Under the pieces are notes generated by a model. The model did not search any database. It was not told the DNA's origin and saw only the letters and a program-made list of their open reading frames with translations. Of a stretch of 64,000 nt of DNA, positions 1-13,722 are shown one piece after another. The position numbers were made by a program, and so were the translations under genes. The DNA lies in NCBI GenBank assembly GCA_963716025.1, contig CAVQSY010000071.1, positions 16,643 to 80,642 on the forward strand, read 5' to 3'. The DNA comes from an uncultured Chloroflexia bacterium. GTDB lineage: Bacteria > Chloroflexota > Limnocylindria > Limnocylindrales > CSP1-4. Numbering within the stretch: position 1 is the stretch's first letter; the number at the start of each line of letters is the position of its first letter.

Positions 1-1311
1 GGGCTCGCGGGTGGGATACCGCACGTCCGGCGTGAAGAGCCCGCGCCCGATGTCACGCTCGTTGACCAGGGCGCCGGCGAGCATCCCGAGCTCGACGGGC
101 CGGCCGGATGAATCCACGGCCCGCGCGCCCCACGTGGGGGTGGCGAGGTGCTCGAAGGCCGAACGGCCGGTCTCCGCGAGGAGCTCAGCCTGCGGGAAGA
201 CCTGGTCGAGATCGATCTTGAACGTGCCTCGGACGCCGGGATCGACGACGACCCGCCAGAAGGCGGCGATTGCCTTGAGGAAGCTGTAGTGGCGGCCGTA
301 GGCGCCGTCGACGCCGAAGACGGCGCGCAGGAGCGCGACGGGGTCTTCGATGCCGGCGTCGGTGCCGCCCGCCGGTCCGGCTGCTCCGGCCGCCGGGGCA
401 AGGACCTCGTCCACCAGGCATGCCGTGTCGGACTCCGTGAAGGCGTGCACGTCGAGATGGCGCAGGCGACCCGAACGCGTGAGCTCCGCCTCCACGTACG
501 GCCGCGCGACGGGGCGAAGCCCGTCGTGCGTGACGGTCACCGAGAGCACGCACGGCACCCGGGCGCTGCCATCCCCGCCGGGGCGGCGGGCGAGCTCGAA
601 GGTGATGGCGTCGTCGAGCCCCCGCAGGCCGTGCAGGAGCTCGTTGCGCGCGGGCTCGACGCCGACCTGGACCGGGTGGTCGAACCACTGCCGCTGCGGC
701 TCCGCGGCCGCGGCCGCGATGTCGCGCACCAGCGCGGGAGGGTAGGGGAGCGCGTCGATGTCGCGGGTCGCCGCCGGGATCGTGAGCAGCACGTTCGAGG
801 TGAAGAGGACCTCCCGTGCCGGGTCGGCGATCGGGTCCGGGTTCAGCTGCTCGATCCGGACGGTCCTCCGATCGCGCAAAGCCGCCTCGCGCGCTTGCTC
901 GTGCCCGAGGATCCCGGTGCCCTCCGGGAAGAAGAGGGTCCAGGCTGCCTCGGCCGTGGCCACTGACCCCTGTCCGGGGCTTTCGAGGCGGCCGGCGGTC
1001 GCCGACAGCCTCGCCGCGACGACCGGGTCGCCGGCGGCAGCCCCCGAAACCTCGTCGCGGACGAGCCCGACGGCCTTCCGGAGGAAGTCGACGACGTCGC
1101 GCTCCTCGCCGTGAGCCGGTCGCTCAAGGACGGCGAGGGCTTGTCCGTGGGCCGGGTGGCCCGGCCCGGCGAGGGCGACGAGGAAGGCCGCACTGAGCGC
1201 GGCGATGCGCTCCTCGGTCTCGAGGAGGGGACCGGGGTCCAGGATCGCGGCGCCGCCCGGCGAGGCGGGCGTGAGCAGGTGGCCCACGATGCGCTCGAAG
1301 GTGCCGGTCAT
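1..1311 (-). CDS. Conserved hypothetical protein with DxD motif; 3' end runs off the window
   Basis: Manual translation from ATG at 1311 (MTGTFERIVGHLL...) stays open to position 1 (437 codons). It contains motif-like blocks WFDHPVQVG, FGVDGAYGRHYSFLKAIA, TFKIDLDQVFPQ and GMLAGALVNERDI. Missing from the ORF track because there is no stop codon inside the window. Confidence 0.8.
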   Translation of the reverse strand, partial: MTGTFERIVGHLLTPASPGGAAILDPGPLLETEERIAALSAAFLVALAGPGHPAHGQALAVLERPAHGEERDVVDFLRKAVGLVRDEVSGAAAGDPVVAARLSATAGRLESPGQGSVATAEAAWTLFFPEGTGILGHEQAREAALRDRRTVRIEQLNPDPIADPAREVLFTSNVLLTIPAATRDIDALPYPPALVRDIAAAAAEPQRQWFDHPVQVGVEPARNELLHGLRGLDDAITFELARRPGGDGSARVPCVLSVTVTHDGLRPVARPYVEAELTRSGRLRHLDVHAFTESDTACLVDEVLAPAAGAAGPAGGTDAGIEDPVALLRAVFGVDGAYGRHYSFLKAIAAFWRVVVDPGVRGTFKIDLDQVFPQAELLAETGRSAFEHLATPTWGARAVDSSGRPVELGMLAGALVNERDIGRGLFTPDVRYPTREP

Positions 1312-1483
1312 CTGCGCACCATACCGCGCGGCCGCGGCCGCGGGTGAGGGATCGGGGCGCATGCCCCGGAACGATCGATGGTCGGGCCGCGCCCAGGCAC
1401 CGAGACAGGTCCGTTTCGCCCGTTGCGGGGGTCCAGGGGTCGAGGTAAATGGGCCTTATGGCATGGCCGCGACGGGTGCATGG

Positions 1484-1492
1484 TGGTAGACT
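1484..1492 (+). promoter_or_regulatory. Extended -10 promoter element (TGgTAGACT) for the amidinotransferase operon
   Basis: TG-n-TAGACT about 220 nt upstream of the GTG at 1711, inside the divergent intergenic region. Confidence 0.45.
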
Positions 1493-1710
1493 TCCGTCAA
1501 GTTGGGACGACGCTGGCCGTCGTTCCCGTTTGCGTTTGTTCCTGAGTGACGTGAGCAGCTGTCCTGCCGCTATGGCCGCAGGGACACGCCGGGGTCACGC
1601 CGCAGGTTGCCCGTGGAATTGCGGGCGACCTGCAGAGAGCGGCTCCCGCGCCAGATCGACTTGGGCTGCCGCGGTCTAGGCCCCACAGGGGCCGGAAAGG
1701 AGCGGGCCAC

Positions 1711-2916
1711 GTGGCCAAGATTGTCAACTGCTGGAACGAGTGGGATCCGCTGAAGCGGGTCATCATCGGCCGGCCGGAGGGGACCAACGTCCCCGCGCCG
1801 GAGCCGGCCTGGTGGTACGACCTGCCCAAGGGTGGGTTCCCGCTCGGTTCGTGGGGCCCCTTCCCTGAGGAGCAGGTGGCTGCCGCCAACGAGCAGATGG
1901 ACTACTTCGTCGCGCAGATCGAGAAGCGCGGCGTGCTCGTCGAGCGGATCGACATCCAGCCGTTCATGTTCAACAAGCCGCTCCACTCGCCGCTTGGCTG
2001 GACGCAGCTGAATGCGCACGGCGTGAACAACGTCCGTGACGTCACCACGATCCACGGCAACTACATCGTCGAGGCGACGACCGTCCGGCGCTCGCGCGTC
2101 TTCGAGCGGTTCAACCTCCGCCCGATCTTCGAGCGGTACGTCAAGGAGGACCCGGAGGCGGTCCACTTCGGCGCGCCCTTCCCGATGCTGACGGACGAGT
2201 CGTACGTCAACATCTCCGGCACCGGCGCCCCGGACTACTACTACTACATGGAGAACGTCTGGACCGACGACGAGAAGCGGGAGCGCCTCTACAACGGCGA
2301 GTTCCAGCTCTCGGAGAAGGAAGCCCTCTGGGATTCCGCGGACTCCATGCGGTTCGGCAAGGACATCTTCCATCAGCTGTCGTGCGTCTCGAACAAGAGC
2401 GGCGTCGACTGGCTGAAGCGCATGTTCGGCTCGCTCGGCATCCGCGTGCACGAGGTCCAGTTCGACTCCCCGCGCGACAAGGGCAAGCCCGACAACTTCC
2501 ACCCGTGGCACATCGACGTGAACTTCGTCCCGCTTCGGGAAGGTCTCGTCATGACCAACCCCGACTGGGCGCCGCGGAACCCGGAGCTCTTCGAGCTCTT
2601 CAAGATCAATGGCTGGGAGATGATCGAGGCCGCGCGGCCGACGCGCGTCCACAAGAACGACGTCTACCTGACGGGGCTCTACGAGGGCAAGTCGTGGATC
2701 TCCATGAACACGTTCTCGATCGACCCCAAGACGGTCTGTGTTGAGGCTGGCGAGACTGCGTACTGCGAGCAGCTCGACAAGCTCGGCTTCGACGTCGTGC
2801 CGATCCCGTACGAGAAGGTCATTCCGTTCGGCGGTGCTCTGCACTGCACCACCCTCGACGTCTATCGCGAGGGCGAGCTGAAGGACTACTTCCCGAAGCA
2901 GATCAAGGGCTACTAG
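1711..2916 (+). CDS. Amidinotransferase (L-arginine:glycine amidinotransferase / StrB1 family)
   Basis: N-terminal [21 protein letters not shown], and catalytic-triad motifs WDSAD (Asp), WHID (His) and [10 protein letters not shown] (Cys). SD AAAGGAG at 1696-1702. Confidence 0.93.
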
Positions 2917-3128
2917 CCCACGTCCAAGGCGGTTCGTCCTGCCCGGCACCCCGAGGGCGTCGCCGGGTAGGATGGATCCAGAGCACATCAAGGTTCGGGT
3001 CGGCGGGTCACGGTTGGCCAGCCGACCCGAACTCCTATGTCATCCGCCACGATGTCGTTCTGCTCCACGGTCGCCTGGCCGTGTTGGCCGCGACCGGGCT
3101 GGCGAGCTTCCAGGGAGAACCATCGAAC

Positions 3129-4130
3129 ATGGCCGTCAATCTGCGCAACAGGAGCTTCCTCAAGGAGCTCGACTTCACGCCACAGGAGCTTCGCTTCCTG
3201 CTCGACCTCTCGCTCGACCTCAAGAAGGCGCGGTACGCAGGGACGGAGCAGCAGCGACTCAAGGGCAAGAACATCGCCCTGATCTTCGAGAAGGACTCGA
3301 CGCGGACGCGCTGCGCCTTCGAGGTCGCGGCCTACGACCAGGGAGCCCACGTGACCTATCTCGGCCCCACGGGGAGCCAGATGGGCAAGAAGGAGACCAT
3401 CCGGGACACGGCCCGCGTGCTGGGTCGGTACTACGAGGGGATCGAGTACCGCGGCTACGGGCAGGAGATCGTCGAGGAGCTCGCCAAGTACGCGGGCGTG
3501 CCGGTGTGGAACGGCCTCACGAACGAGTTCCACCCCACCCAGCTGCTGGCTGACTTCCTCACCATGATGGAGCACAGCGACAAGCCGCTTCACGCCCTCA
3601 AGTTCGCGTACCTGGGCGATGCGCGGTTCAACATGGGCAACTCGTACCTCATCGGCTCGGCCAAGATGGGGCTGGACTTCCGCGTCGTCGCGCCGAGCAG
3701 CCTCCACCCGAACGCCGACCTGGTGAAGCAGGCGCGCGAGATCGCGGCGAGCACGGGGGCCAAGATCACCCTCACCGAGGATGTCGACGAGGGCGTCAAG
3801 GGCTGCGACTTCATCGCCACCGACGTGTGGGTCTCGATGGGCGAGGCCGCGGAGGTCTGGGAGGAGCGGATCAAGCTGCTCAAGCCCTACCAGGTCAACG
3901 CCGATGTCATGCGCAAGACCGGCAACCCCCGGACCAAGTTCCTCCACTGCCTGCCGTCGTTCCACAACACCGGGACGACGATCGGCAAGGAGATCGGGCA
4001 GAAGTTCGGCCTCGACGCGATGGAGGTCACCGACGACGTCTTCGAGTCCGATGCGTCCGTCGTGTTCGACGAGGCCGAGAACCGGTCTCACACGATCAAG
4101 GCCGTGATGGTGGCCACCCTGGGGAGCTAG
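3129..4130 (+). CDS. argF: Ornithine carbamoyltransferase (ArgF/ArcB)
   Basis: FEKDSTRTR carbamoyl-phosphate motif, HPTQ, DVWVSMG (the OTC-type loop rather than the putrescine-type), FLHCLP. Start moved to ATG 3129 after GGGAG. Confidence 0.95.
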
Positions 4131-4338
4131 CCCCGGGAACACGCGTGGATCCCGGGCCGACCCGGGGCATAGACCGAGCGTCGCGAGTGGGTTCGGCGAG
4201 GCTGCCGAGCACCATCGCCGACGAATCGACAGGCGGCGCTGACCGGCGAACATGCACCGAGAGCGGTGGGTAGTCCCGCCGGATATTGACTCGAGCGAGA
4301 CGTCGGCTCGCAACAACGCAACCAGGAGGTAGCGATCA

Positions 4339-5688
4339 ATGGCGACGAAGGCGCGGAAGAACGTCCTGATCATCGGATCCGGTGGACGTGACTTCCACAA
4401 CTTCAACACGTACTACCGGGACAACGAGGCGTACAACGTCGTCGGGTTCACGGCAGGGACGCAGATCCCGGGCATCATCGGCCGGAAGTATCCGCCCGAG
4501 CTGGCCGGGTCCCTCTATCCGAACGGGATCCCCGTCTACAACGAGGCCGACCTGTCGACGCTCATCCCCGAGCTCAAGATCGACGACGCGGTCTTCTCGT
4601 ACAGCGACGTGTCGTTCCAGCACGTCCTGACCCTCGGGGCGATCGCCCAGGCGGCGGGCGCGAACTACGTGCTCCTCGGCCCCGGCGACACCCAGATCAA
4701 GAGCAACAAGCCGGTCATCGCTGTCGGCGCGGTCCGCACCGGCGCCGGCAAGAGCCAGACCTCCCGCGCGATCATCGAGTTCCTGATGGCCCGCGGCCTG
4801 AAGGTCGTGGCTGTCCGGCACCCGATGCCGTACGGCGACCTCAACTCGCAGGTGTCGATGCGCTTCGCCGAGATCTCCGATCTCACGAAGCACAACTGCA
4901 CCGTCGAGGAGATGGAGGAGTTCGAGCCGCACGTGGCTCGCGGGAACGTCATCTACTGCGGCGTCGACTACGGGAAGATCCTGAACGACGCCGAAAACGA
5001 TCCGAACGGCTGCGACGTCATCCTCTGGGACGGCGGGAACAACGACTTCGCGTTCTTCAAGCCGGACCTCATGGTGACCGTCGTCGACCCGCTGCGGGCC
5101 GGCCATGAGCTCACCTACTGGCCGGGCGCCGTGACCCTCCGGGTCGCCGACGCCGTGGTCATCAACAAGATCGACAGCGCGACCCCCGACGAGATCGCGA
5201 TTGTCCGCAAGAACATCGAGAAGGTCGCCCCGAAGGCTACCGTCATCGACGCGGCCTCCCCGCTCACCGTGGACGACCCCTCGCTCATCAAGGGCAAGCG
5301 CGTCCTCGTGATCGAGGACGGCCCCACGGTCACCCACGGCGACATGACGACCGGTGCGGCGAAGGTCGCAGCCATCAAGTACGGCGCGGCCGAGATCGTC
5401 GACCCGCGTCCGTTCCTGAAGGGCAGCCTCGTCGGCATGTTCGAGCTCTACCCGCACGTGACGGACATGCTTCCGGCCGAGGGGTACGGCGGCCCGATGC
5501 TGAAGGACATGGAGGACACGGTCAACGCGGTTGACTGTGACGCCGTGATCGTCGGCACGCCGATCGACCTGGCCCGGATCATCAACATCAAGAAGCCGAA
5601 CACCCGCGTCTACTACGACCTCCAGACGATCGGCACCCCGAATCTCGACGGCGTCCTCGGCGACTTCGTCAAGAAGCACGGGCTGTAG
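4339..5688 (+). CDS. arcE: COG2403 P-loop protein (cyclic 2,3-diphosphoglycerate synthase-like); probable arginine synthetase ArcE
   Basis: GGRDFHNFN, TQIPGI-GRKYPPELAG, Walker A RTGAGKSQTSR, RHPMPYG, WDGGNND and EDGPTVTHG are typical of this family. It is adjacent to OTC, as in the arginine synthetase pathway. SD CAGGAGG. Confidence 0.8.
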   Translation: MATKARKNVLIIGSGGRDFHNFNTYYRDNEAYNVVGFTAGTQIPGIIGRKYPPELAGSLYPNGIPVYNEADLSTLIPELKIDDAVFSYSDVSFQHVLTLGAIAQAAGANYVLLGPGDTQIKSNKPVIAVGAVRTGAGKSQTSRAIIEFLMARGLKVVAVRHPMPYGDLNSQVSMRFAEISDLTKHNCTVEEMEEFEPHVARGNVIYCGVDYGKILNDAENDPNGCDVILWDGGNNDFAFFKPDLMVTVVDPLRAGHELTYWPGAVTLRVADAVVINKIDSATPDEIAIVRKNIEKVAPKATVIDAASPLTVDDPSLIKGKRVLVIEDGPTVTHGDMTTGAAKVAAIKYGAAEIVDPRPFLKGSLVGMFELYPHVTDMLPAEGYGGPMLKDMEDTVNAVDCDAVIVGTPIDLARIINIKKPNTRVYYDLQTIGTPNLDGVLGDFVKKHGL

Positions 5689-5866
5689 GTCCAGTCAGCA
5701 CCGATCCAGCACGCGGAGACCATCGGGCACCACCCGGCGGTCTCCGCGGAACAGCGCGGCGGTCAACCGCACGTCGATGATCGCCGGCCGGACGAGACCG
5801 TGATCTCGGGGCCCGCGAGGCGGGCTGCGGCCGTGGAGCGCGTCAGCAGCTGATCACGGAAGCACA

Positions 5867-5900
5867 AGAGAGGCCCTCGGGGTGACCCGAGGGCCTCTCT
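5867..5900 (+). terminator. Stem-loop terminator after the three-gene operon
   Basis: Perfect 15-bp stem AGAGAGGCCCTCGGG-GTGA-CCCGAGGGCCTCTCT. Confidence 0.7.
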
Positions 5901-6451
5901 CCGTGTCCGGGGTTGGGAAGGGCGGGAAAGGGGAGTCACATGTCTCCCACGACGGCCGGGCCGTCAGCTCCACCGCCTCCCGCGGCTCGACCAGCCCGGG
6001 GCGCGCGTCGGACCGCGCACGTGAGGGCAGGCTGGACCGTCGAGAGGCGCCCTGGGCCCGAGGGTTGCCCCCCGGCGCGCGGTGGCGCCACGCCCGCGCG
6101 GCGCGCGGTCCGCGCTACGCTCATCGGCGCGCTGTCGCCGCCAAGCGGCGCGGTCGCGCTACGCCCATCGGCGCGCGGTCGGCGCCCGATCGCGTGCGGC
6201 CGCGCTGGGGCCGTGAGCAAGCGTGGCCTTCACGTCATCCCCGCGCCGTGGACGAGGAACCGACGGTGCGGCGAACCCGACGATGGCCGCCACCCCGGTC
6301 CCTCGACCGGGAGATCGACGAAGCGCTTGTCGGGGCCGCGTGGCAGCGCAGCAGGGCCCAGCTGAGCCGAGCCACAGCTCGAGAGACCTCGTGCCCGCTC
6401 GGCCCGGAGCATGGTCGCTGCCTCAGGGGATCAGGTGATGATCGGGCAGCG

Positions 6452-6495
6452 CGGCAGGCACCGGGGACGCCGCAGCCCGGCAGGCACCGGGGACG
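6452..6495. repeat. 18-bp direct repeat, 2 copies (CGGCAGGCACCGGGGACG)
   Basis: Exact copies at 6452-6469 and 6478-6495. Confidence 0.7.
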
Positions 6496-6689
6496 GCGGT
6501 CGCGCGAGTCCTCCTCACCCGGGCCTCGGCGTTGCGCCCGCACGACGTGCTGGGACTTGCCCTCGCGCCACCCGCGCCTCGCGCGTCCCTCCCGCACGTC
6601 GCGGCGCGCCTCCGTCCCGCGCAGGGCCGGGGCCACGGGCGGTCCACTCCCGCGCCGGGGGTGCTCGCGGCGTCGATGCGCAGGAACGA

Positions 6690-6720
6690 GAAGAGCCCGG
6701 CGCTCGGCGCCGGGCTCTTC
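6690..6720 (-). terminator. Stem-loop terminator downstream of the SSS transporter (possibly bidirectional)
   Basis: GAAGAGCCCGGCGC-TCG-GCGCCGGGCTCTTC: 14-bp perfect stem 50 nt past the stop codon. Confidence 0.7.
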
Positions 6721-6770
6721 TTCGAGCGTAGAACCGGAGGGAAAGCCCCGCCGGTCCGGGCTTGTGGGTT

Positions 6771-8285
6771 CTAGGCGAGGCCGCGAGCGACGTTCTCGTC
6801 GGTCGCGACTTCCGTGATCACGTGGTGCTTCGGCACGTCCGTCTTGTACGTCGCGGACGAGACCGCCACCATCGCGATGAGCGAGACGACCGGCGGGATC
6901 AACGTGTCCAGGCCGGGCTCCAGGGCGGGGATGCCGAGGAAGAACAGGAGGCGCAGGCCGGAGCCAATGATGATGGACGCCAGCGCCCCACTGGTGTTGG
7001 CCTTGCTCCAGTAGATGCCCAGCACGAGGGGCACGAGGCACCCCGCAAAGACCACGTCGAACGCGAGGACGAGCATGACTCCCGGCTCGGGCCGAACGAT
7101 GGCGAGCCACAGGCGACCGGAAGACGGGGATGAGCATGAGCCGGGCGTACGTGAGCAGCCGCTGGTCAAGCATGTGCCAGTCGAGGTTGAGCTCCTCGAG
7201 CGTCTTGCCCATCGACGCGGCCTTGCGGCGCTCGTACGGGAAGAATGATGTTCCGGTGGAGGATGTTGCGCCCGAAGACGGCCGACACGGCGAGTGCGCC
7301 ACCGTTCGCGGTGGACAGACCCTGCGCCGAGGACACCGCCCAGGACGAACAGACCGACGATGAAGGGCAGCTCGTTCGTGGCGATCAGGCCCAGCGCATC
7401 CCGCGGGTCGTCGAGGACCGGGAACAGCGCGAAGGTCATGAGGCCGAGGACCGTGGCGCCGAGCCCGGCGATGATCGTGAAGATTGCGCCGTAGTAGCAG
7501 GCAGCCTGGGCCGTCTTCTCGTCCTTGGCGGCAAAGACGCGCTCCATGAAGTCAAGGGCGACGATGTCACCCAAGGCGAGCGCGAGAATACCCGCCCAGT
7601 TGATGAGGGCTCCGCTCTCGATGCTTGTCAGTCCGCTGAGGTCGGCGTAGCCGGCCGGGATCGCAGCGGCGAAGAAGTCGATGCCGTAGTTCCCGATCAG
7701 GATCAACGGCGCGGCGATGAAGGCGATCAGCGCCGGGTACAGCTGGACGATGTCCGTCGCCGCCGACGAGAACAGCCCGCCGCTGAACGTGTACAGCAGG
7801 ACGAGCCCCGTGACGACGACGAGCGCCGGGACGTACTCGATGCCGAAGACCGTCTTCACGATCCAGCCACAGCCGGCCAGGTTGCCCGCGACCAGGATGA
7901 TGAAGCTGATCGCCATGATGAAGGTGACCGGGATCTCGACCCTGTTGCTGTAGCGCCGATAGTAGAAGTCGGCCAGGGTGAGCATGTTCATCCGGTTCAG
8001 CGGCTTCGCGAACCACGTCCCGGTCACGACCAGGCACAGGGCCAGCCCGAGCGGGAAGGTGAAGCCCGTCCAGAACCCGCCGGCCTGAACGGCGCCCGCG
8101 GAACCCACCGTGGAGTTCGCATCGAGCGCCTGGGCGAAGAGCATCGTGCCCACGATGAGCAACGGCAGCCGCTTACCGGCGATGATGAAGCGCTTGCCGC
8201 TCTTCTGGACCAGAAAGGCCATCGACACGCCGATGGCGGTGTAGCTCGCCAGGAGTACGGCAATGCCGAGTCCTAGATCATTCAC
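6771..8285 (-). CDS. Sodium:solute symporter (SSS/SLC5 family), with compensating frameshifts at about 7120-7325
   Basis: About 13 hydrophobic segments, FIIAGKRLP, TLADFYYRRYS, YTFSGGLFSSAATDIVQ, MERVFAAKD. GTG at 8285 follows GGGAGG. The segment GLSTANGGALAVSAVFGRNI...LDWHMLDQRLLTYARLML is spread over other frames. Confidence 0.88.
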   Translation of the reverse strand: MNDLGLGIAVLLASYTAIGVSMAFLVQKSGKRFIIAGKRLPLLIVGTMLFAQALDANSTVGSAGAVQAGGFWTGFTFPLGLALCLVVTGTWFAKPLNRMNMLTLADFYYRRYSNRVEIPVTFIMAISFIILVAGNLAGCGWIVKTVFGIEYVPALVVVTGLVLLYTFSGGLFSSAATDIVQLYPALIAFIAAPLILIGNYGIDFFAAAIPAGYADLSGLTSIESGALINWAGILALALGDIVALDFMERVFAAKDEKTAQAACYYGAIFTIIAGLGATVLGLMTFALFPVLDDPRDALGLIATNELPFIVGLFVLGGVLGAGSVHRERWRTRRVGRLRAQHPPPEHHSSRTSAARPRRWARRSRSSTSTGTCLTSGCSRTPGSCSSPSSGRLWLAIVRPEPGVMLVLAFDVVFAGCLVPLVLGIYWSKANTSGALASIIIGSGLRLLFFLGIPALEPGLDTLIPPVVSLIAMVAVSSATYKTDVPKHHVITEVATDENVARGLA

Positions 8286-8380
8286 GTACAAGAACCTCCC
8301 TGAACCCTCGTTCCCCCTCCTGCCCCTCGATTGGTGGTAGCGGGAGCCCGGTGCCGGGGTCACCGTGGTCGGTCGTTGAC

Positions 8381-8493
8381 ATCCCCGGGCTGCATAGGAG
8401 GGCAGTCCTCGCGACCGCCTCGGCGGTAGATGTCGAGAGTGGTGAAGTGCTGCACGCGACCAATCGCGATGGCCTTGTCACAGGGATCGGCAT
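8381..8493 (-). pseudogene. Decayed 3' fragment of a second amidinotransferase gene
   Basis: Translates to PCDKAIAIGRVQHFTTLDIYRRGGREDCPPMQ, versus [32 protein letters not shown] in the intact gene (15/32 identical, ungapped). The DNA aligns to 2797-2916 with a 1-nt deletion after the P-I-P codons. Confidence 0.8.
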
Positions 8494-8796
8494 GATTTAA
8501 CGTGGACCGCAGGGCGGCCAGGCCGTTGCGAGACGGCGGGCTACACGCCCCGGTGTGTGTACGGCCTCGGTCACCGATCGCCTGACGCCACCCCCACCGC
8601 TGAGGCGATGGACGCGGCCCGGCAACTTGAACGGGATCGACAGCTACCGTCGCTTGTGCTGCTGGCCGGCGAACATGCCTGGCCTGTTCCTCCTTCCCTC
8701 CACCCAGCAATCTGCGTCGAAACCGTGTCTCCCTCTTGCCCTTCGACGCAGGCTGAACAAGACGGTGCCTTCCGTCTCGACGGGCAAGTGGGCAGG

Positions 8797-8826
8797 AGGT
8801 TAGTCGCTCGTCGCGGGCCGCGTCAA
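8797..8826 (-). promoter_or_regulatory. Sigma70-type promoter for the SSS transcript
   Basis: Minus strand TTGACG (8826-8821)-N18-TAACCT (8802-8797). Confidence 0.55.
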
Positions 8827-9096
8827 TGGCCGATCCTCACGTCTTTCGGGCGAATGTATCTGCCGCAGAACCCGCCCCAATGGGGCCGTTTGACCCTACC
8901 GACCCGCCTCGTGTCGGCTGTCGCCGGCGCGCCGACCGAGGTTCCGGGAGGCGCTGGCGCACACCGGTGCCCTGAACGCCGGAGCCCGACCGACACGCGC
9001 TGATCCAGTGAGCCCGCGACAGGCGGGGCAGCCTCCGGGGAGCAGCGGACCGTACAATGGCCCTCCGCCACCACTCCCGAGGAGGGGATCACGTCC

Positions 9097-9486
9097 GTGC
9101 CGCCGATCACCGAGCTGACGAGGATCGAGCCGATCCATCTCCGGCGACTCGAGCGCCAGGGGGTCTTCACCACGGGGCTTCTGCTCGAGGTCTCCGAGAC
9201 CGTCACGCGCCGCCAGACGCTGGCGGACCAGGTGGCCGCGACGACGAACGACATCCTGGCGTGGCGTGACGAGGCGCTCATGCTGAACCTTGCCGGCTTC
9301 GGGCCGGCCGAGCACGACCTCTTCCGCTACGCGGGGTACGACGGTCTACGGTCGCTTCTCACCGTCGACCTGGACACATTTCGCGCGGCGATCGCGCGTG
9401 CGGCGCTGCGGCTCCACGTCGAGCCGCCGTCCGACCTCATGATCGAAACCTGGCTGGAGCAGGCCCCCACGCTCCAGGACGAGTGA
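9097..9486 (+). CDS. DUF4332-like (helix-hairpin-helix) protein
   Basis: Pattern LRRLERQGVFTT-LL...RQTLA...ILAW...L-NLAGFGP...LFRYAG...PPS-MIETWLEQA. SD GAGGAGG; TACAAT at 9053-9058. Confidence 0.7.
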   Translation: MPPITELTRIEPIHLRRLERQGVFTTGLLLEVSETVTRRQTLADQVAATTNDILAWRDEALMLNLAGFGPAEHDLFRYAGYDGLRSLLTVDLDTFRAAIARAALRLHVEPPSDLMIETWLEQAPTLQDE

Positions 9487-10202
9487 GCGTGCCGGATCCC
9501 GGACCGAGCATCCCCGGGAGGAGCCTCGCGGGCGTCGCGGTCGCGCTCTCGACTGCCCTCGTCGTGGTGGGCGTCGCCGTCGCGGTCTTCTTCAACCCGG
9601 TGTGGGTCTCCTTCGCGCAGGCTCGCGCCGACGCGGCGGCCTGGACCGGCTGGGCCGCGGAGGAGGTCGATGGGGTGACCCGCGACGTCGTGCTGGAGGT
9701 GTGGCTCGGGCCCGGCACGTTCGAGCAGGCGGTTGCCGGCAAACCGGTGTTCGACGAGCGCGAGCGCTCGCACATGGCCGACGTCCGACGCGTCGTCCTC
9801 GCGTTCTACGGCATCGTGCTCCTCGGGGCGGTCGCCCTCCTCGTCGCCGGCACGGCGTCGCGCGGCTCGCGCCGGTTCTGGGGTGCGGTGGCCGGGGGCG
9901 CTGCCGGTCTCGCGCTCGGCGCCGTCGCGGTCGGAGGCGCCTTCCTCCTCGTCTTCGACACGGCCTTCAGCCTGTTCCACCAGCTCCTCTTCGCCGAGGG
10001 AACGTGGTCGTTCGACCCCGCGCGAGACCGGCTGGTCCAGCTGTTCCCGTACCAGTTCTGGACCGAGACGACGGTCGCGATCGCGGTCGTCGGCCTGGCG
10101 CTCACGATCGCGGTGTGGGCGGTGGCGCGCCGGCTCGCCCGACCGCGAGGAGGGCCCTCCGCGCCGGCCGGAGCCGTGACGACCGGTGGCGACGTCTCCT
10201 GA
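9483..10202 (+). CDS. DUF1461/TIGR01906 integral membrane protein (lipoprotein intramolecular transacylase Lit family)
   Basis: Four TM segments with ERSHMADVR and FSLFHQLLF-EGTWSFDPARDRLVQLFPYQFW motifs. GTGA overlap with the upstream gene. Confidence 0.82.
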   Translation: MSVPDPGPSIPGRSLAGVAVALSTALVVVGVAVAVFFNPVWVSFAQARADAAAWTGWAAEEVDGVTRDVVLEVWLGPGTFEQAVAGKPVFDERERSHMADVRRVVLAFYGIVLLGAVALLVAGTASRGSRRFWGAVAGGAAGLALGAVAVGGAFLLVFDTAFSLFHQLLFAEGTWSFDPARDRLVQLFPYQFWTETTVAIAVVGLALTIAVWAVARRLARPRGGPSAPAGAVTTGGDVS

Positions 10203-10369
10203 GGGACTGCGCCATGAGCCCACCGCGGGACATGGCTGCCGGCGGGCTCGTGGTCGTGCCAGAATCGGCAGGCTCGCTCCGGCCCGGCGAGCCCATCGAG
10301 CCGGGGTGGCGCGACCGACCCTGAGTGTCCGGCCGGTTCGCCGGTCCGCCTGGACGACGTGGAGGAGCC

Positions 10370-10981
10370 ATGGACGACCGCTCGCAGCCCCGGGCGGCGC
10401 GCCGCCGCCTCAGCCACGTCGACCGTGGCGGCCGGCCCCGCATGGTTGACGTGTCCGGCAAGGCGCCGACCGCACGGCGGGCGATCGCCGAGGGCGAAGT
10501 CGCATGCTCGCAGGAGACGCTGACCCTCGTGATCGACGGGGGCGGGCCCAAGGGTGACGTCCTCACCGTGGCCGAGCTGGCGGGCGTCATGGCGGCGAAG
10601 CGGACGGCGGAGCTGATCCCGCTCTGCCACCCGCTTCCGCTGACCGATGTCGTGGTCCGGATCACGCCCGACCGGGCGGCCTCGGCCTTCCGCGTTCGTG
10701 CCGAGGCGGCCACGACGGGACCGACCGGCGTCGAGATGGAGGCGCTCACGGCGGTGAGCGTGGCCGCGCTGACCATCTATGACATGGTGAAGGGCGTCGA
10801 GAGGGGCGTCGTGATCCGCTCCATCCATCTCCTGGCGAAGAGCGGGGGCGCGTCCGGCGACTGGCAGCGCGAGCGCGAGCCGGTCGAGACCGTCGCCCCG
10901 CGCGCCCCGCGCTCCAGGCCCGTGGGTGGGCCCGGTCGTGCCGGTGGCATCAGGCGCGCGCCGAAGCGCCAGGGGGGCTGA
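10370..10981 (+). CDS. moaC: Cyclic pyranopterin monophosphate synthase MoaC
   Basis: [67 protein letters not shown]. Confidence 0.95.
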
Positions 10982-10985
10982 CAGC

Positions 10986-11507
10986 GTGCCCGGCTCCTCC
11001 TCCGCACTCGTCCTCACCGTCTCCACCCGCGGCTTCGCCGGCGAGCGCCCCGACAAATCGGGCGCGGCCGTCGCGGAGCGGCTGGCAGGCCTCGGTCTCG
11101 AGGTGGAGCGGGGGATCGTGCCGGACGACCAGCCGCTGATCCAGGCGGCGCTCGTGGAGGCGGCTGGACGCCATGCCCTCGTGGTCACGACCGGCGGGAC
11201 CGGGCTCACCCCTCACGATGTCACGCCGCAGGCAACGCGAGCAGTGATCGACTACGAGGTCCCCGGGTTCGCCGAGGCGATGCGCGCCGACGGTCGGGCC
11301 AGGACGCCGCTGGCGATCCTGTCGCGGGCCGTCGTCGGCGTGCGCGGGCGGACGCTCATCGTGAACCTGCCGGGGAGCCCGCGCGGCGCGACGGAGTCGC
11401 TCGACGCCATCGAGCCGGTGCTTGGGCATGCGCTGGAGACCCTCGCCGGCCCCTTCGACCACGCAGGCTGGCCGGGGTCGGGCGCCATGACCCCCACGAA
11501 GACGTGA
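10986..11507 (+). CDS. mog: MogA/MoaB family molybdopterin adenylyltransferase
   Basis: LTVSTR...DKSG, TTGGTGLTPHDVTPQAT, PGFAEAMR, NLPGSPRG. Confidence 0.88.
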   Translation: MPGSSSALVLTVSTRGFAGERPDKSGAAVAERLAGLGLEVERGIVPDDQPLIQAALVEAAGRHALVVTTGGTGLTPHDVTPQATRAVIDYEVPGFAEAMRADGRARTPLAILSRAVVGVRGRTLIVNLPGSPRGATESLDAIEPVLGHALETLAGPFDHAGWPGSGAMTPTKT

Positions 11508-11574
11508 CGGGCGCGCGTCTGCGGGCCACGGGGTCGGGCGGACGCGGTGGGGTGACGGGATCGGGAGTCCAGGG

Positions 11575-13722
11575 ATGACCGAGTCGCTTTCCCATGTCCC
11601 CGGGTACTTCCTGGTCTTTCCGCTCTTCTACGGCGCGCTCGCGGTCTTCGCCCTCCTCATGGCTCGCCACCTCCGGGTTCTCGGGGCCGTGCGCCCCGCG
11701 GCCCGGTTCAGCGACGTGCCGCGCCGTGCGGCCGGCCTCGTGCGCTTCGCGTTCCTGCAGTCCCGGGTGTTCCGCGACCCTGCAGCAGGTCTCATGCACT
11801 ACGCGATCTTCGCCGCGTTCGTGCTGCTCTCGGTCGGCGTGGCGAGCACCGTCACCGGTGGGCTCGTGGAGGCGGTGCTGGCCGCGCCCGGCGGCGGGGC
11901 GGCCTGGGCGGCCGTGCTCCTGCTGCGGAACGTTGCCGCGGTGGGCGCCCTGGCCGGGATCGCCTACTTCGTCGGCCGCCGGCTCGTCGCGCGCCCCGCC
12001 CGCCTCACCCTCTCGCGTTCGAGCGTCGCCGTCCTCCTGCTGATCGGCGGGATCGTGGCAGCGGAGCTGGGAGCCCTTGCCTACGAGGCCGCGGTGTGGG
12101 GCCCGCTGCCCGGAGCCGTCCTCACGAACGCCGTCGGCGCCCGGATCGCTGGGGTCGACCGGGCGCTGCTCGAGCTCCTGTTCGCGGTCCACTGGTGGGC
12201 CCACATCGCCCTGGTCGCGACGTTCCTGGTCTGGCTCCCGCGGACGAAGCACCTCCACGTCGTCACGAGCTTCTTCAATGTCTACCTCCGCAAGCTCGAG
12301 CCGCGCGGCGCGCTCCCCGCGATGGATCTCGAGGCGGCGGACGCGACGTATGGCCTGCGGAACCTCTCGGACCTTGCCTGGAAGGACGTCCTGGACGGGC
12401 TGACCTGCACCGAGTGCGGGCGCTGCCAGGATGCCTGCCCGGCGCACTTCACCGGCAAGCCCCTCAATCCGAAGGAGCTGGTGATGGGAATCCGCCACGT
12501 CTCCGACGATGCCGAGCGCGCGCTCCACCTGGTCGAGGGCCGCATGGGTGTGCAGGCGCGCGGCGGGGACCGCACGGGAGCGCAGGCCCGGGGCGGAGCC
12601 CGCGACGGCGCGCCCACTCCGGCTGCCCTCGCGCTCCCGCTGGTGCCCGCGGCGATCAGCGAGGACGCGGTCTGGGACTGCGTGACCTGCGGGGCATGCG
12701 TCGAGGCGTGCCCGGTCCTCATCGAGCATGTCGACAAGATCGTCGGGCTCCGCCGCAACCTGGTCCTCGAGGAGAGCCGCTTCCCCGCTGAGCTGATCCC
12801 CACGTTCCGGGCGATGGAGTCGGCCCAGAACCCGTGGGGTCAGCCGCGGAGTGCGCGTCTCGACTGGACCAGGGGTCTTCCGTTCGAGGTGCCGCTGGCC
12901 GCCGACGTCGCCCGCGACGACGGGCTGGCAGGACTCGAGCTCCTGTACTGGGTCGGTTGCGCCGCCGCGTTCGACGAGCGCAGCCGTCGGGTCGCCCGGG
13001 CGTTCGCGACATGTCTCGACGCAGCCGGCGTGTCCTACGCGATCCTGGGCCAGGAGGAGGCGTGCAGCGGCGACCCGGCCCGGCGGATGGGCAACGACTA
13101 CGTGTTCCAGCTCCTGGCAGCGGCGAACGTCGAGACGCTCAGGCGCTACGGGCCGCCGCGGATCGTCACTGCCTGCCCGCACTGCTTCAACACGCTCGCC
13201 CACGAGTACCCGCAGCTGGGCGGCGAGTTCGACGTGGTCCACCACTCCGCGTTCCTGGCGGAGCTCCTCGAGGCGGGCCGCCTGGCGACGCTCGTGGGGA
13301 CGGACGGGGCGGCCGCCCGGCGGGTGACCTTCCACGACGCGTGCTATCTGGCGCGCTACAACGGGGTGATCGCCGCCCCGCGGGAGGTGCTGGGGGCTGT
13401 CCCGGGTCTCCAGCTGGTCGAGATGGATCGCCGGGGGCGGGACAGCTTCTGCTGTGGGGCCGGGGGCGGGCGGATGTGGATGGAGGAGAGCCGCGGGTCC
13501 CGGATCAACGCCGAGCGCGCCCGCGAGGCGCTCGCCACGGGTGCCGATGCCGTCGCGGTTGGCTGCCCCTTCTGCGCGACGATGCTCGGGGACGGGCTCG
13601 CGGCGGACGCGGGCAACACCGCCGGGGTCACGACCCTCGACCTCGCCGAGATCCTCGCCCCGGTTGCCGTCGCGGGGCCGGCCGCCGGCCGGAGCCAGCG
13701 GGAGCTGCCCGTGCTCCAGTAG
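11575..13722 (+). CDS. Membrane-bound (Fe-S)-binding oxidoreductase, FadF/EtfD-like (TM domain, 2x[4Fe-4S], two CCG domains)
   Basis: Five N-terminal TM segments with conserved His (GLMH, HWWAH, KHLH), CTECGRCQDACP, CVTCGACVEACP, ACSGDPARR-G, ACPHC, FHDACYL-RYN, FCCGAGGG, GCPFC. Confidence 0.88.
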   Translation: MTESLSHVPGYFLVFPLFYGALAVFALLMARHLRVLGAVRPAARFSDVPRRAAGLVRFAFLQSRVFRDPAAGLMHYAIFAAFVLLSVGVASTVTGGLVEAVLAAPGGGAAWAAVLLLRNVAAVGALAGIAYFVGRRLVARPARLTLSRSSVAVLLLIGGIVAAELGALAYEAAVWGPLPGAVLTNAVGARIAGVDRALLELLFAVHWWAHIALVATFLVWLPRTKHLHVVTSFFNVYLRKLEPRGALPAMDLEAADATYGLRNLSDLAWKDVLDGLTCTECGRCQDACPAHFTGKPLNPKELVMGIRHVSDDAERALHLVEGRMGVQARGGDRTGAQARGGARDGAPTPAALALPLVPAAISEDAVWDCVTCGACVEACPVLIEHVDKIVGLRRNLVLEESRFPAELIPTFRAMESAQNPWGQPRSARLDWTRGLPFEVPLAADVARDDGLAGLELLYWVGCAAAFDERSRRVARAFATCLDAAGVSYAILGQEEACSGDPARRMGNDYVFQLLAAANVETLRRYGPPRIVTACPHCFNTLAHEYPQLGGEFDVVHHSAFLAELLEAGRLATLVGTDGAAARRVTFHDACYLARYNGVIAAPREVLGAVPGLQLVEMDRRGRDSFCCGAGGGRMWMEESRGSRINAERAREALATGADAVAVGCPFCATMLGDGLAADAGNTAGVTTLDLAEILAPVAVAGPAAGRSQRELPVLQ

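Follow-up and report, generated by a model that had tools for sequence, protein, structure and literature searches.

An amidinotransferase and a sodium-coupled importer joined to an arginine synthetase pathway in a laterally acquired bacterial island suggest an undescribed guanidino route

Introduction

The arginine synthetase ArcE of Thermococcus kodakarensis (TK2200) is a reversible enzyme with the capacity to sustain arginine production in vivo (Michimori et al., 2024; PMC11032458). It is specific for L-arginine; agmatine, guanidine and D-arginine are not substrates. The same source notes that TK2200p was structurally matched to LpxK (PDB entry 4EHY), with low similarity to cyclic 2,3-diphosphoglycerate (cDPG) synthetase, and that its homologues are annotated as 'predicted GTPase'. 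According to a 2026 paper, ArcE and ArcB supply carbamoyl phosphate for pyrimidine synthesis in T. kodakarensis (PMC13260591). Amidinotransferases are absent from the main texts of both papers, and passages of a 2025 review of guanidine metabolism treat them solely as producers of guanidino compounds (PMC12623156).

The window considered here is a stretch of 64,000 nucleotides from an uncultured Chloroflexia bacterium (contig CAVQSY010000071.1). A preliminary description proposed that three of its genes, encoding an amidinotransferase (AMT), an ornithine carbamoyltransferase (OTC) and an ArcE-type enzyme, close an ATP-conserving cycle for guanidino compounds, and its author was not aware that either this cycle or its reverse had been described for the trio. 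Our literature search likewise found no paper joining an amidinotransferase with arginine synthetase. Such a route, if it operates, would allow bacteria to convert imported guanidino compounds to arginine, carbamoyl phosphate, ammonia and ATP.

Results

Three enzymes and a symporter

Three intact, co-oriented open reading frames are present at 1711–2916 (AMT), 3129–4130 (OTC) and 4339–5688 (ArcE-type) on the forward strand, as first described, and the Shine–Dalgarno sites claimed for them are AAGGAG, GGGAGA and AGGAGG, respectively. The identities originally given to the three products hold on the evidence of profiles, PDB searches and structure matches.

The GTG start of AMT (401 residues) at 1711 has its AAGGAG 7 nt upstream and agrees with the N-terminus of 24 homologues. 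A phmmer search of the PDB placed the protein in the AGAT/SxtG/HsvA/StrB1 family (SxtG, 4.8e-42; HsvA, 9.4e-41; human AGAT, 1.4e-37; StrB1, 6.4e-29); SxtG, HsvA and AGAT align over residues 5–394, and the best StrB1 stretch is 199–393. In Foldseek the AF2 model (pLDDT 77, pTM 0.84) matched the same four enzymes at E values of 5e-32 to 8.5e-26, with target-normalised TM-scores of 0.82–0.86, compared with 1e-11 to 1e-8 for the hydrolases ADI, DDAH, ArgZ and NnhA. Identity is 27–30% to the transferases over the full length versus 11–14% to the superfamily hydrolases. In both sequence and predicted fold AMT groups with the transferases and is remote from the hydrolases. The membership of PF02274 previously assigned to it was not borne out: the 401 residues matched no Pfam-A family at E ≤ 0.01, PF02274 included, and no NCBIfam model, and the identity rests instead on solved structures.

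Five residues of AMT (D110, D208, H267, D269 and C379) are invariant across 25 homologues. C379, H267 and D208 align with C407, H303 and D254, the catalytic Cys-His-Asp triad of human AGAT, and D110 and D269 align with its guanidino-binding D170 and D305. At the substrate site N300, M302 and R322 of AGAT are replaced by H264, W266 and W286, and a nine-residue insert (255–263) lies ahead of the active-site histidine. On these grounds AMT was rejected as an orthologue of AGAT while remaining a member of its family, and with the site so altered the binding of ornithine or arginine is an assumption. Homologues from many phyla are 61–95% identical, and several genomes carry two or three AMT paralogues, some of them in tandem.

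The OTC reading frame opens at 3081, but the family profile begins at residue 17–19 of this long form and GGGAGA precedes the ATG at 3129, so 3129–4130 (333 residues, ArcB-like) is the more likely gene. Both Pfam domains, OTCace_N and OTCace, were matched, as were NF003286 (569 bits, cut-off 515) and TIGR00658 (419 bits, cut-off 281). Putrescine, N-acetylornithine, aspartate and YgeW carbamoyltransferases were rejected, all falling far under the model cut-offs, and by its sequence the product is a true ornithine carbamoyltransferase.

The third gene, with AGGAGG before its ATG at 4339, encodes a P-loop protein of 449 residues that has more than 8000 homologues, named 'predicted GTPase' by JGI and 'cyclic 2,3-diphosphoglycerate synthase' by NCBI. 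Its P-loop, T134-G135-x-G137-K138-S139 (GxGKS), is invariant in 24 sequences. The best solved fold for the AF2 model (pLDDT 89) in Foldseek is cDPG synthetase (E = 1.2e-15, 15% identity), followed by LpxK 4EHY (1.6e-8); in sequence the solved cDPG synthetase matches residues 225–329 only, a local match of about 100 residues with an E value of 1.2e-3. The low identity, the local nature of the match and the context of arginine metabolism led us to reject a cDPG synthetase, and for this clade the name used by NCBI is very probably a misannotation. The gene adjoins that for OTC, and relatives carry carbamate kinase and OTC inside the cassette. Fold, homologue names and gene context point indirectly to a putative arginine synthetase, ArcE.

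A sodium:solute symporter (SSF) of 530 residues is encoded on the opposite strand to the trio (6771–8363, reverse; Pfam SSF, 3.2e-27) and scores under the cut-offs of both the PutP and the PanF equivalogs. A small frame of 116 residues (8360–8710, reverse) overlaps the symporter start by 4 nt. Its membership of the island is uncertain: it has no Pfam match and no homologue across the 78 loci described below, and the DNA that the window has in common with L001, the closest related locus, does not include it.

Leader and hairpins

The DNA homology with L001 starts at 1406, ahead of AMT. This 5' leader (1406–1710, forward strand) is 82% identical to L001 column by column, with conserved blocks that include TGGTGGTAGACT and GGAGCGGCTCCCGCGCCAGATC, and probably serves as promoter or operator. 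There is no support for a riboswitch: an Rfam search of the leader gave no match, and its fold does not surpass that of shuffled sequences (z = -0.7).

The gap between AMT and OTC holds a GC-rich hairpin (2993–3032, forward) with 18-nt arms, 89% complementary, and a 4-nt loop, a putative intercistronic stabiliser or weak terminator. Further GC-rich hairpins follow OTC (4130–4157 and 4193–4221), another with 16-nt arms, 88% complementary, lies 24 nt 3' of the ArcE stop (5712–5748, forward), and a perfect 15-bp hairpin (5867–5900) separates the convergent ArcE and symporter genes. The last was also picked up by Rfam as a miRNA-like match at chance level. None of the five has a T run and none was listed by a consensus terminator scan. 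The earlier view that one terminator closes the trio is only partly right: there are hairpins 3' of ArcE, but hairpins follow every gene and all lack T runs. The spacing of 208–212 nt between the genes, with hairpins in the gaps, weighs against claiming one single operon.

The island and its host

Homology between the window and L001 at the DNA level is limited to 1406–4133, 4340–5691 and 6756–8368, the last covering the symporter, and the flanks differ. This restriction to three blocks set within different flanks marks the island, as judged from sequence, as foreign to the host's family. AMT was found in none of 23 same-family genomes searched; ArcE occurs in 17 of 30, at 50–54% identity.

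The preliminary description had noted that the trio is less skewed towards alanine and arginine than its neighbours, which is so (Ala+Arg fraction 0.10–0.15 versus 0.18–0.29 in eight other window genes, six of them at 0.22 or above), and had ascribed this to high expression, an explanation that is not supported. GC contents by codon position are 0.59–0.62 (GC1), 0.38–0.39 (GC2) and 0.94–0.96 (GC3); the last value indicates native-like codon usage, so that the amino acids carry the difference. Identity to homologues from other phyla is high (AMT, 77–81%; OTC, 72–80%; ArcE, 63–68%). For such an island, foreign to the host's family, conservation after transfer accounts for the composition without invoking expression.

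The absence of arginine deiminase from the window was confirmed and extended: a search of the window's genome, which is about 70% complete, for the arcA family (TIGR01078) gave nothing at E ≤ 0.001, and arcA was above the cut-off in none of five cassette genomes tested. Carbamate kinase is not part of this island. The genome carries arcC on contig C42 (TIGR00746, 369 bits, cut-off 358), adjoining a second OTC, and therefore holds ArcE, ArcB and ArcC together. Besides this second arcB–arcC pair it has argG, pieces of argH, carB and a second ArcE.

Conservation of the cassette

We compared 78 public loci with AMT (81 copies), 46 of them at least 12 kb long. ArcE is present in 46 of the 78 loci, carbamate kinase in 37, SSF in 34 and OTC in 33, a conserved linkage that supports the trio as a functional unit and clearly fails to bear out the refuting condition set in the preliminary description, absence of the trio from every other genome; the carbamate kinase that had been assumed to complete it is supplied by these 37 loci and by the separate contig noted above. 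The cassette kinase is a true arcC (TIGR00746, 392 bits, cut-off 358). Among the 46 longer loci, 34 have ArcE, 21 have ArcE, OTC and carbamate kinase, and 15 have SSF as well; 36 have at least one of the three enzymes. Recurrent gene orders are OTC-CK-ArcE-AMT-SSF (CK, carbamate kinase), ArcE-AMT-SSF-CK and AMT-PyrR-CK-ArcE-HAD-OTC-SSF. In gene content the first of these, the usual form, adds an amidino-transfer step and an importer to a complete arginine synthetase pathway.

The record titles of loci with both AMT and ArcE name at least nine phyla, the topology of the AMT tree does not match taxonomy, and linkage to AMT extends over three or more well-supported lineages of ArcE. The dependence is one-sided, ArcE being common without AMT: among 151 genomes of one phylum, ArcE occurs in 81 and AMT in one. 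Often argB and an N-acetyltransferase of arginine biosynthesis flank the cassette; ornithine aminotransferase and agmatinase lie near seven and six of the 81 AMT copies, respectively. PyrR is within the cassette in six loci, and carB was not found in three single-chromosome genomes with a cassette of this type, which agrees with the carbamoyl-phosphate role of the T. kodakarensis enzymes described in PMC13260591.

Of the 57 AMT copies with enough flank, 24 have SSF as the next gene 3' in the same orientation, and this adjacency is kept without ArcE in view at L008, L013, L051, L054, L065 and L075. In basal AMT clades the neighbour is an ABC system of the NitT/TauT type whose binding protein is NMT1-like. 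Arginine deiminase operons typically include an arginine/ornithine antiporter; an ArcD-type antiporter was not found among the recurrent neighbours of the 78 loci. Importers beside AMT, and no antiporter, suit net import of a donor by a cell that retains its ornithine.

Discussion

A possible amidino cycle

We give an even chance to a cycle in which the amidino group of an imported donor passes to ornithine, and ArcE, OTC and carbamate kinase return the arginine to ornithine with the release of carbamoyl phosphate, NH3 and up to two ATP. The symporter would import a guanidino compound, and AMT would transfer its amidino group to ornithine to give L-arginine and a free amine; both the donor and this direction are our supposition. 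By analogy with the Thermococcus enzyme, ArcE would then convert arginine, ADP and Pi to citrulline, NH3 and ATP, and the citrulline could be phosphorolysed by OTC to ornithine and carbamoyl phosphate. The latter might enter pyrimidine synthesis or yield a second ATP through carbamate kinase, the gene for which is on another contig here and inside the cassette in the 37 loci already mentioned. Since ornithine would be regenerated, it would act as a catalyst. The specificity of ArcE for L-arginine means that other guanidino compounds would enter through a transferase that makes L-arginine first.

The gene identities, their linkage and carbamate kinase speak for the cycle as originally proposed; the argument from composition does not. 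AMT without ArcE in 12 of the 46 longer loci counts against it; ArcE is elsewhere in the genome in four of five genomes whose AMT locus shows none. From the free energies given in PMC11032458 we infer that a route with two ATP per amidino group is close to equilibrium. Since each of ArcE, OTC and carbamate kinase can run in either direction, together they can also make arginine out of CO2, NH3 and two ATP; the direction of net flux probably depends on organism and supply. Here the host has argG, argH and carB, and the island is accordingly most likely a scavenging and catabolic add-on by which a guanidino donor supplies nitrogen, carbamoyl phosphate and energy.

The reverse direction, which the preliminary description also named, we consider unlikely, a one-in-four prospect. 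Carbamate kinase (or carbamoyl-phosphate synthetase), OTC and ArcE would make arginine and AMT would amidinate an imported or internal amine, with ornithine recycled; from ornithine, CO2, two NH3 and two ATP a guanidino osmolyte, nitrogen store or signalling molecule would result. Known members of the family take arginine as donor and are biosynthetic, in accord with their PDB titles, which is opposite to the step proposed for AMT. Besides the reversibility of ArcE and the frequent proximity of argB and the N-acetyltransferase, argG and argH were both unfound in 20 of 39 cassette genomes and carB in 19, against 37 with argS, used as the control, so that ArcE would have to make arginine in many hosts; in those without argG and argH the three enzymes may run mainly towards arginine. 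Against a synthetic cycle, the transporters adjacent to AMT are importers (SSF or binding-protein-dependent ABC systems), not exporters, and tailoring, kinase and export genes are not recurrent companions of the cassette. Multiple AMT paralogues fit multiple substrates better than multiple products, the window's genome acquired the island although it already had canonical arginine synthesis, and we know of no widespread guanidino product in the phyla concerned.

It is improbable that the genes form a plain operon for arginine catabolism or homeostasis, with AMT either hydrolysing arginine or detoxifying its analogues and the symporter carrying arginine, citrulline or ornithine. ArcE, OTC and carbamate kinase are a complete known pathway by themselves, ornithine aminotransferase and agmatinase are sometimes nearby, and the substrate-site residues of AMT are unlike those of AGAT. 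The Foldseek matches, however, place AMT with the transferases, a second destroyer of arginine beside ArcE would forfeit the ATP gained through that enzyme, and the AMT–SSF pair persists at the six loci where ArcE is not visible. As for a secondary-metabolite module in which AMT begins a guanidino natural product, like StrB1, SxtG or AmtA, and OTC provides resistance or supply, the kinship with SxtG and StrB1 and the pairing of an amidinotransferase with a resistant OTC in phaseolotoxin clusters recommend it, but it is very improbable given that the 78 loci show no recurrent PKS, NRPS or tailoring genes, that AMT is conserved over many phyla, unlike pathway-specific biosynthetic enzymes, and that its partners are arc-type energy genes.

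Comparison with known systems

The amidino cycle, our preferred reading, resembles several described systems in part. It shares with the T. kodakarensis pathway (TK2200, ArcB, ArcC; PMC11032458, PMC13260591) a P-loop enzyme with a fold like cDPG synthetase and LpxK encoded beside OTC and carbamate kinase, the lack of arginine deiminase, reversibility, two ATP per arginine and a possible source of carbamoyl phosphate. It differs in that an AGAT-family transferase is joined to the pathway and a symporter frequently accompanies it, and in that the cassette has spread laterally among bacteria, with the window's carbamate kinase elsewhere in the genome. To the P-loop fold of cDPG synthetase the 449-residue protein is distantly related.

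The arginine deiminase pathway (arcABC and ArcD) also leads from arginine through citrulline and carbamoyl phosphate to ornithine, by way of OTC and carbamate kinase and with substrate-level formation of ATP. The cassette has instead an ArcE-type first step, no arcA found and no recurrent ArcD-type antiporter, and its symporter and transferase suggest that something other than arginine is the substrate. AMT shares its fold, its Cys-His-Asp triad and both guanidino-binding aspartates with AGAT, StrB1, SxtG and HsvA; unlike theirs, its context is catabolic or central-metabolic and the proposed direction is from donor to ornithine. Like the creatinase, guanidinobutyrase/agmatinase-family, guanidinase and guanidine carboxylase routes, the cycle would use guanidino compounds as a nitrogen source; those hydrolytic or carboxylating routes release urea or spend ATP, whereas the proposed one would retain the energy of group transfer in carbamoyl phosphate and ATP.

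Identity of the three enzymes

The first gene of the trio encodes a 401-aa amidinotransferase (AMT; ORF 1711–2916, plus strand), which is matched by no Pfam and no NCBIfam model. The protein is similar over its full length to the solved structures of SxtG (4.8e-42), HsvA (9.4e-41) and human AGAT (1.4e-37), while StrB1 matches its C-terminal half (6.4e-29). Alignment with AGAT (1jdw numbering) places C379, H267 and D208 at the positions of the catalytic residues C407, H303 and D254, and D110 and D269 at those of the guanidino-binding aspartates D170 and D305; all five are invariant among 25 homologues. The catalytic, guanidino-binding and pocket roles of the AGAT residues are those of the AGAT literature. 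The pocket differs from that of AGAT in having H264, W266 and W286 in place of N300, M302 and R322, and AMT carries a 9-residue insert ahead of the active-site histidine. The AlphaFold model (pLDDT 77, pTM 0.84) matches four solved amidinotransferases with E values of 5e-32 to 8.5e-26, and superfamily hydrolases (arginine deiminase, DDAH, ArgZ/AgrE and NnhA) at 1e-11 to 1e-8 with 11–14% identity. Several homologues that are 67–80% identical (P0154, P0160, P0172, P0180, P0187, P0205 and P0231) bear the NCBI name 'serine/threonine protein kinase', which looks like a propagated misannotation; the JGI name for them is glycine amidinotransferase.

The second gene (ORF 3081–4130, plus strand; likely start ATG 3129, preceded by GGGAGA) scores 419 bits against TIGR00658 (cut-off 281) and 569 against NF003286 (cut-off 515); judged by these profiles, it encodes a true ornithine carbamoyltransferase (OTC).

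The product of the third gene (ORF 4339–5688, plus strand) is a 449-aa P-loop protein, a putative arginine synthetase (ArcE type), whose family is named 'predicted GTPase' by JGI and 'cyclic 2,3-diphosphoglycerate synthase' by NCBI. By sequence, similarity to the solved cDPG synthetase covers 100 residues only (E = 1.2e-3); searched with the model (pLDDT 89), cDPG synthetase comes first at 15% identity, with LpxK (4EHY) next. TK2200p, the characterised arginine synthetase of Thermococcus kodakarensis, is described as having homologues annotated as putative GTPases, 4EHY as a structural match and low similarity to cDPG synthetase, and genes of its type as lying near arcB/arcC (PMC11032458). The 449-aa protein resembles it in all of these features, and we infer that the two are orthologous. 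An attempt to tie it to TK2200 through an archaeon-labelled AMT locus (L063) was abandoned: full-length ArcE homologues occur in 81 of the 151 genomes of that phylum, nearly all 47–58% identical, and do not link the protein to the characterised enzyme.

Gene organization and the acquired island

As the preliminary description stated, the three ORFs are co-oriented, each start is preceded by a Shine–Dalgarno site and the trio has a low Ala/Arg skew (Ala+Arg 0.10–0.15, versus 0.18–0.29 in eight other window genes, six of them at 0.22 or more). GC3 in the trio is 0.94–0.96. High expression, offered there as the cause of this composition, gives way to conservation after lateral transfer, which accounts for the un-actinobacterial amino-acid make-up of the proteins and makes high expression needless. 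The single terminator said to close the trio was too simple a picture, since GC-rich hairpins that lack T runs follow every gene; a single operon is therefore putative. A riboswitch in the leader of about 350 nt was considered and rejected. Rfam gave nothing beyond three chance-level matches (window 1–12000, E<=1), the fold is no better than those of shuffled sequences, and the hairpin found at 1504–1526 by a consensus scan is not kept, as read from the alignment, in L001, the closest public relative.

The AMT of L001 is 95% identical, and the DNA that the window has in common with this locus is confined to 1406–4133, 4340–5691 and 6756–8368, with different flanks. The last of these stretches is a sodium:solute symporter gene on the minus strand (6771–8363). 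The trio belongs to an acquired island. The stretch that separates the symporter from ArcE (5692–6755) has a GC content of 76–77% and no DNA homology to L001, which is otherwise collinear; the ORF at 5882–6817 is without a Pfam match, and neither the window's genome nor the 78 loci described below yielded a homologue of it. Further downstream (9097–13722) lie genes unrelated to the island, for a DUF4332 protein, MoaC (10325–10981) and a 715-aa protein with CCG and 4Fe-4S domains.

AMT was not found in the three same-genus and 23 same-family genomes searched, and 400 genomes of the phylum gave a single match, 36% identical. An ArcE homologue is present in 17 of 30 family genomes at 50–54% identity. 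The island proteins are 66–81% identical overall to those of Desulfobacterales and Dehalococcoidia metagenome-assembled genomes (MAGs); protein by protein, the values are 77–81% for AMT, 72–80% for OTC and 63–68% for ArcE.

The window's genome comprises 3.2 Mb in 90 contigs and is about 70% complete. The preliminary description saw no arginine deiminase gene in the window, and arcA was likewise not found across this incomplete genome. The host has a second ArcE (46–47% identity) and a second OTC beside a true carbamate kinase on contig C42 (paralogue and arcB–arcC pair at L082:4826-11106 and L083:2587-7489, stretches of that contig). The pair is flanked by genes for a Rieske ring-hydroxylating oxygenase subunit and a homocysteine S-methyltransferase, and the ArcE paralogue adjoins an MTHFR-like gene, a GMC oxidoreductase and an ABC ATPase; these neighbours suggest methylated-amine metabolism of the betaine or choline type. 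The host also carries argG, carB and argH, the last at a contig end (C3:58-1456) in three pieces in different frames, which may reflect frameshifts or assembly errors.

Conservation of the cassette

An AMT search covering one genome per prokaryotic species gave 120 stretches with a relative, the best 80 of which form 78 loci, all from MAGs. The preliminary description proposed looking for co-localisation, and this was found: by tblastn, with at least half of the query covered, ArcE is present in 46 of the 78 loci, carbamate kinase (CK, arcC) in 37, the symporter in 34 and OTC in 33. Among the 46 loci of at least 12 kb the corresponding counts are 34, 28, 24 and 26; ArcE, OTC and CK occur together in 21, accompanied by the symporter in 15, and at least one of the three is present in 36. 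The cassette kinase is a true arcC (TIGR00746, 392 bits, cut-off 358). Recurring gene orders are OTC-CK-ArcE-AMT-symporter, ArcE-AMT-symporter-CK and AMT-PyrR-CK-ArcE-HAD-OTC-symporter. Where the flank suffices, ArcE lies immediately upstream of AMT in 27/64 copies and the symporter immediately downstream in 24/57.

By record titles, loci with AMT and ArcE span nine phyla, which are interleaved in the AMT tree, and at least three well supported ArcE lineages are linked to AMT. L023 and L024, two loci in MAGs assigned to different phyla (Desulfatiglandales and Sedimentisphaerales), do not differ in gene map or in the sequences of their AMT and ArcE proteins; they are likely to be one contig binned twice and are therefore not independent. 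In L010 (OZ251221.1, 4028456-4049403 of 4049403) an AMT-PyrR-CK cassette reaches the last base of the chromosome record, and the remainder is probably at the start of this circular record.

Neighbours were tallied either within 6 kb of each of 81 AMT copies or by locus. They include HAD-IIA hydrolases (17/81), ornithine aminotransferase (7/81), agmatinase (6/81), PyrR (6/81), N-acetyltransferases (12 loci), argB-like genes (seven loci) and sigma-54 activators (four loci). In the basal AMT clades a NitT/TauT-type ABC importer is adjacent in the symporter's stead.

The dependence of AMT on ArcE is one-sided: within the phylum to which one cassette genome belongs, ArcE occurs in 81 of 151 genomes and AMT in that genome only; where an AMT locus is without ArcE, the enzyme is encoded elsewhere in four of five genomes. 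In none of five cassette genomes was arcA found above its cut-off.

Proposed pathway and direction of flux

AMT would transfer an amidino group from a guanidino donor to ornithine, releasing the amine and arginine; ArcE would then act as assigned to TK2200p (Arg + ADP + Pi <-> Cit + NH3 + ATP), and OTC would convert citrulline and Pi to carbamoyl phosphate and ornithine. The carbamoyl phosphate could yield ATP through CK or enter pyrimidines. The best reading of these genes, on which we are evenly divided, is an amidino-harvesting hub, with net ATP-yielding catabolism as one mode. Rather more tentatively, we propose that the mobile five-gene cassette (importer, AMT, ArcE, OTC and CK) constitutes an undescribed energy-conserving pathway in which catalytic ornithine strips amidino groups off an imported guanidino compound, with a return of up to two ATP, carbamoyl phosphate and ammonia per group. 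Candidate donors are guanidinoacetate or creatine, 4-guanidinobutyrate, taurocyamine and free guanidine. In the many anaerobes that seemingly lack carbamoyl-phosphate synthetase, ArgG and ArgH, both arginine and carbamoyl phosphate would be obtained chiefly through this cassette.

The main rival is an anabolic guanidinylation cycle, which we regard as unlikely. A search of 39 cassette genomes tells against reading the route as catabolic alone: argG was found in 16, argH in 18 and carB in 20, against 37 for the control argS; neither argG nor argH was found in 20, and all three were unfound in 12, one of which also lacked argS. [quoted passage not shown] The harvesting direction of AMT is favoured because the adjacent transporters are importers, because the characterised ArcE takes L-arginine only, rejecting agmatine, guanidine and D-arginine (PMC11032458), and because a host with argG, argH and carB still acquired the island. 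A deimination energy of -37.7 kJ/mol and an equilibrium constant near 10 are reported (PMC11032458), so the route should be near equilibrium, its direction set by supply. PyrR lies within the cassette in some loci, and carB was not seen in three single-chromosome genomes of that form; this fits the supply of carbamoyl phosphate by ArcE and ArcB described for T. kodakarensis in 2026 (PMC13260591). A secondary-metabolite role was dismissed, as the AMT loci have no biosynthetic neighbours.

Hints on the donor are weak: a glycine riboswitch, the NitT/TauT-type importer and M24-like arrays. The riboswitch, on the minus strand of a locus from an Actinomycetes MAG (L003:18308-18419), scores 57.5 bits (gathering score 32) and is found 7 kb downstream of the cassette; it was the sole gathering-level match in nine of the 78 loci (146,582 bases), where no guanidine riboswitch was found near the cassette. 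At L061:11218-18340, L062, L066, L069, L070 and L072, divergent AMT copies (61–65% identical) stand beside tandem arrays in which there are as many as five paralogues, each about 450 aa long and with a weak Peptidase_M24 match (1e-8); in L061 the array is followed by a large outer-membrane beta-barrel protein. The array protein U451 was considered as a creatinase-like hydrolase, and its matches (Peptidase_M24, 1e-8; aminopeptidase P in the PDB, E = 0.0019) are too weak to name a substrate.

Comparison with known systems

Known routes for guanidino compounds such as creatine, guanidinoacetate, guanidinobutyrate and guanidine either break them down hydrolytically to urea or consume ATP. If the proposed pathway is correct, the group-transfer energy would be kept, and anaerobes short of energy would have substrate-level phosphorylation of a new kind; the record titles name sediment and groundwater lineages, for example Desulfobacterales, Dehalococcoidia, Peptococcaceae and Aminicenantes. 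The physiological role of arginine synthetase would extend beyond arginine catabolism, and the supply of carbamoyl phosphate and arginine without carbamoyl-phosphate synthetase and argininosuccinate synthetase/lyase could be explained. Two widespread database names would be corrected, 'serine/threonine protein kinase' for AMT homologues and 'cyclic 2,3-diphosphoglycerate synthase' for those of ArcE type.

The preliminary description knew of no account of this gene trio, and full-text searches agree: they gave no relevant paper that joins an amidinotransferase with arginine synthetase, ArcE, cDPG synthetase, COG2403 or a predicted GTPase, and arginine synthetase together with guanidin* returns the discovery paper alone. 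Amidinotransferases go unmentioned in the main text of both ArcE papers (PMC11032458, PMC13260591), and the passages of a 2025 review of guanidine that concern them present them as producers only (PMC12623156). The enzyme families and the arginine synthetase pathway are known; what would be new is the addition to that pathway of an importer and an amidino-transfer step.
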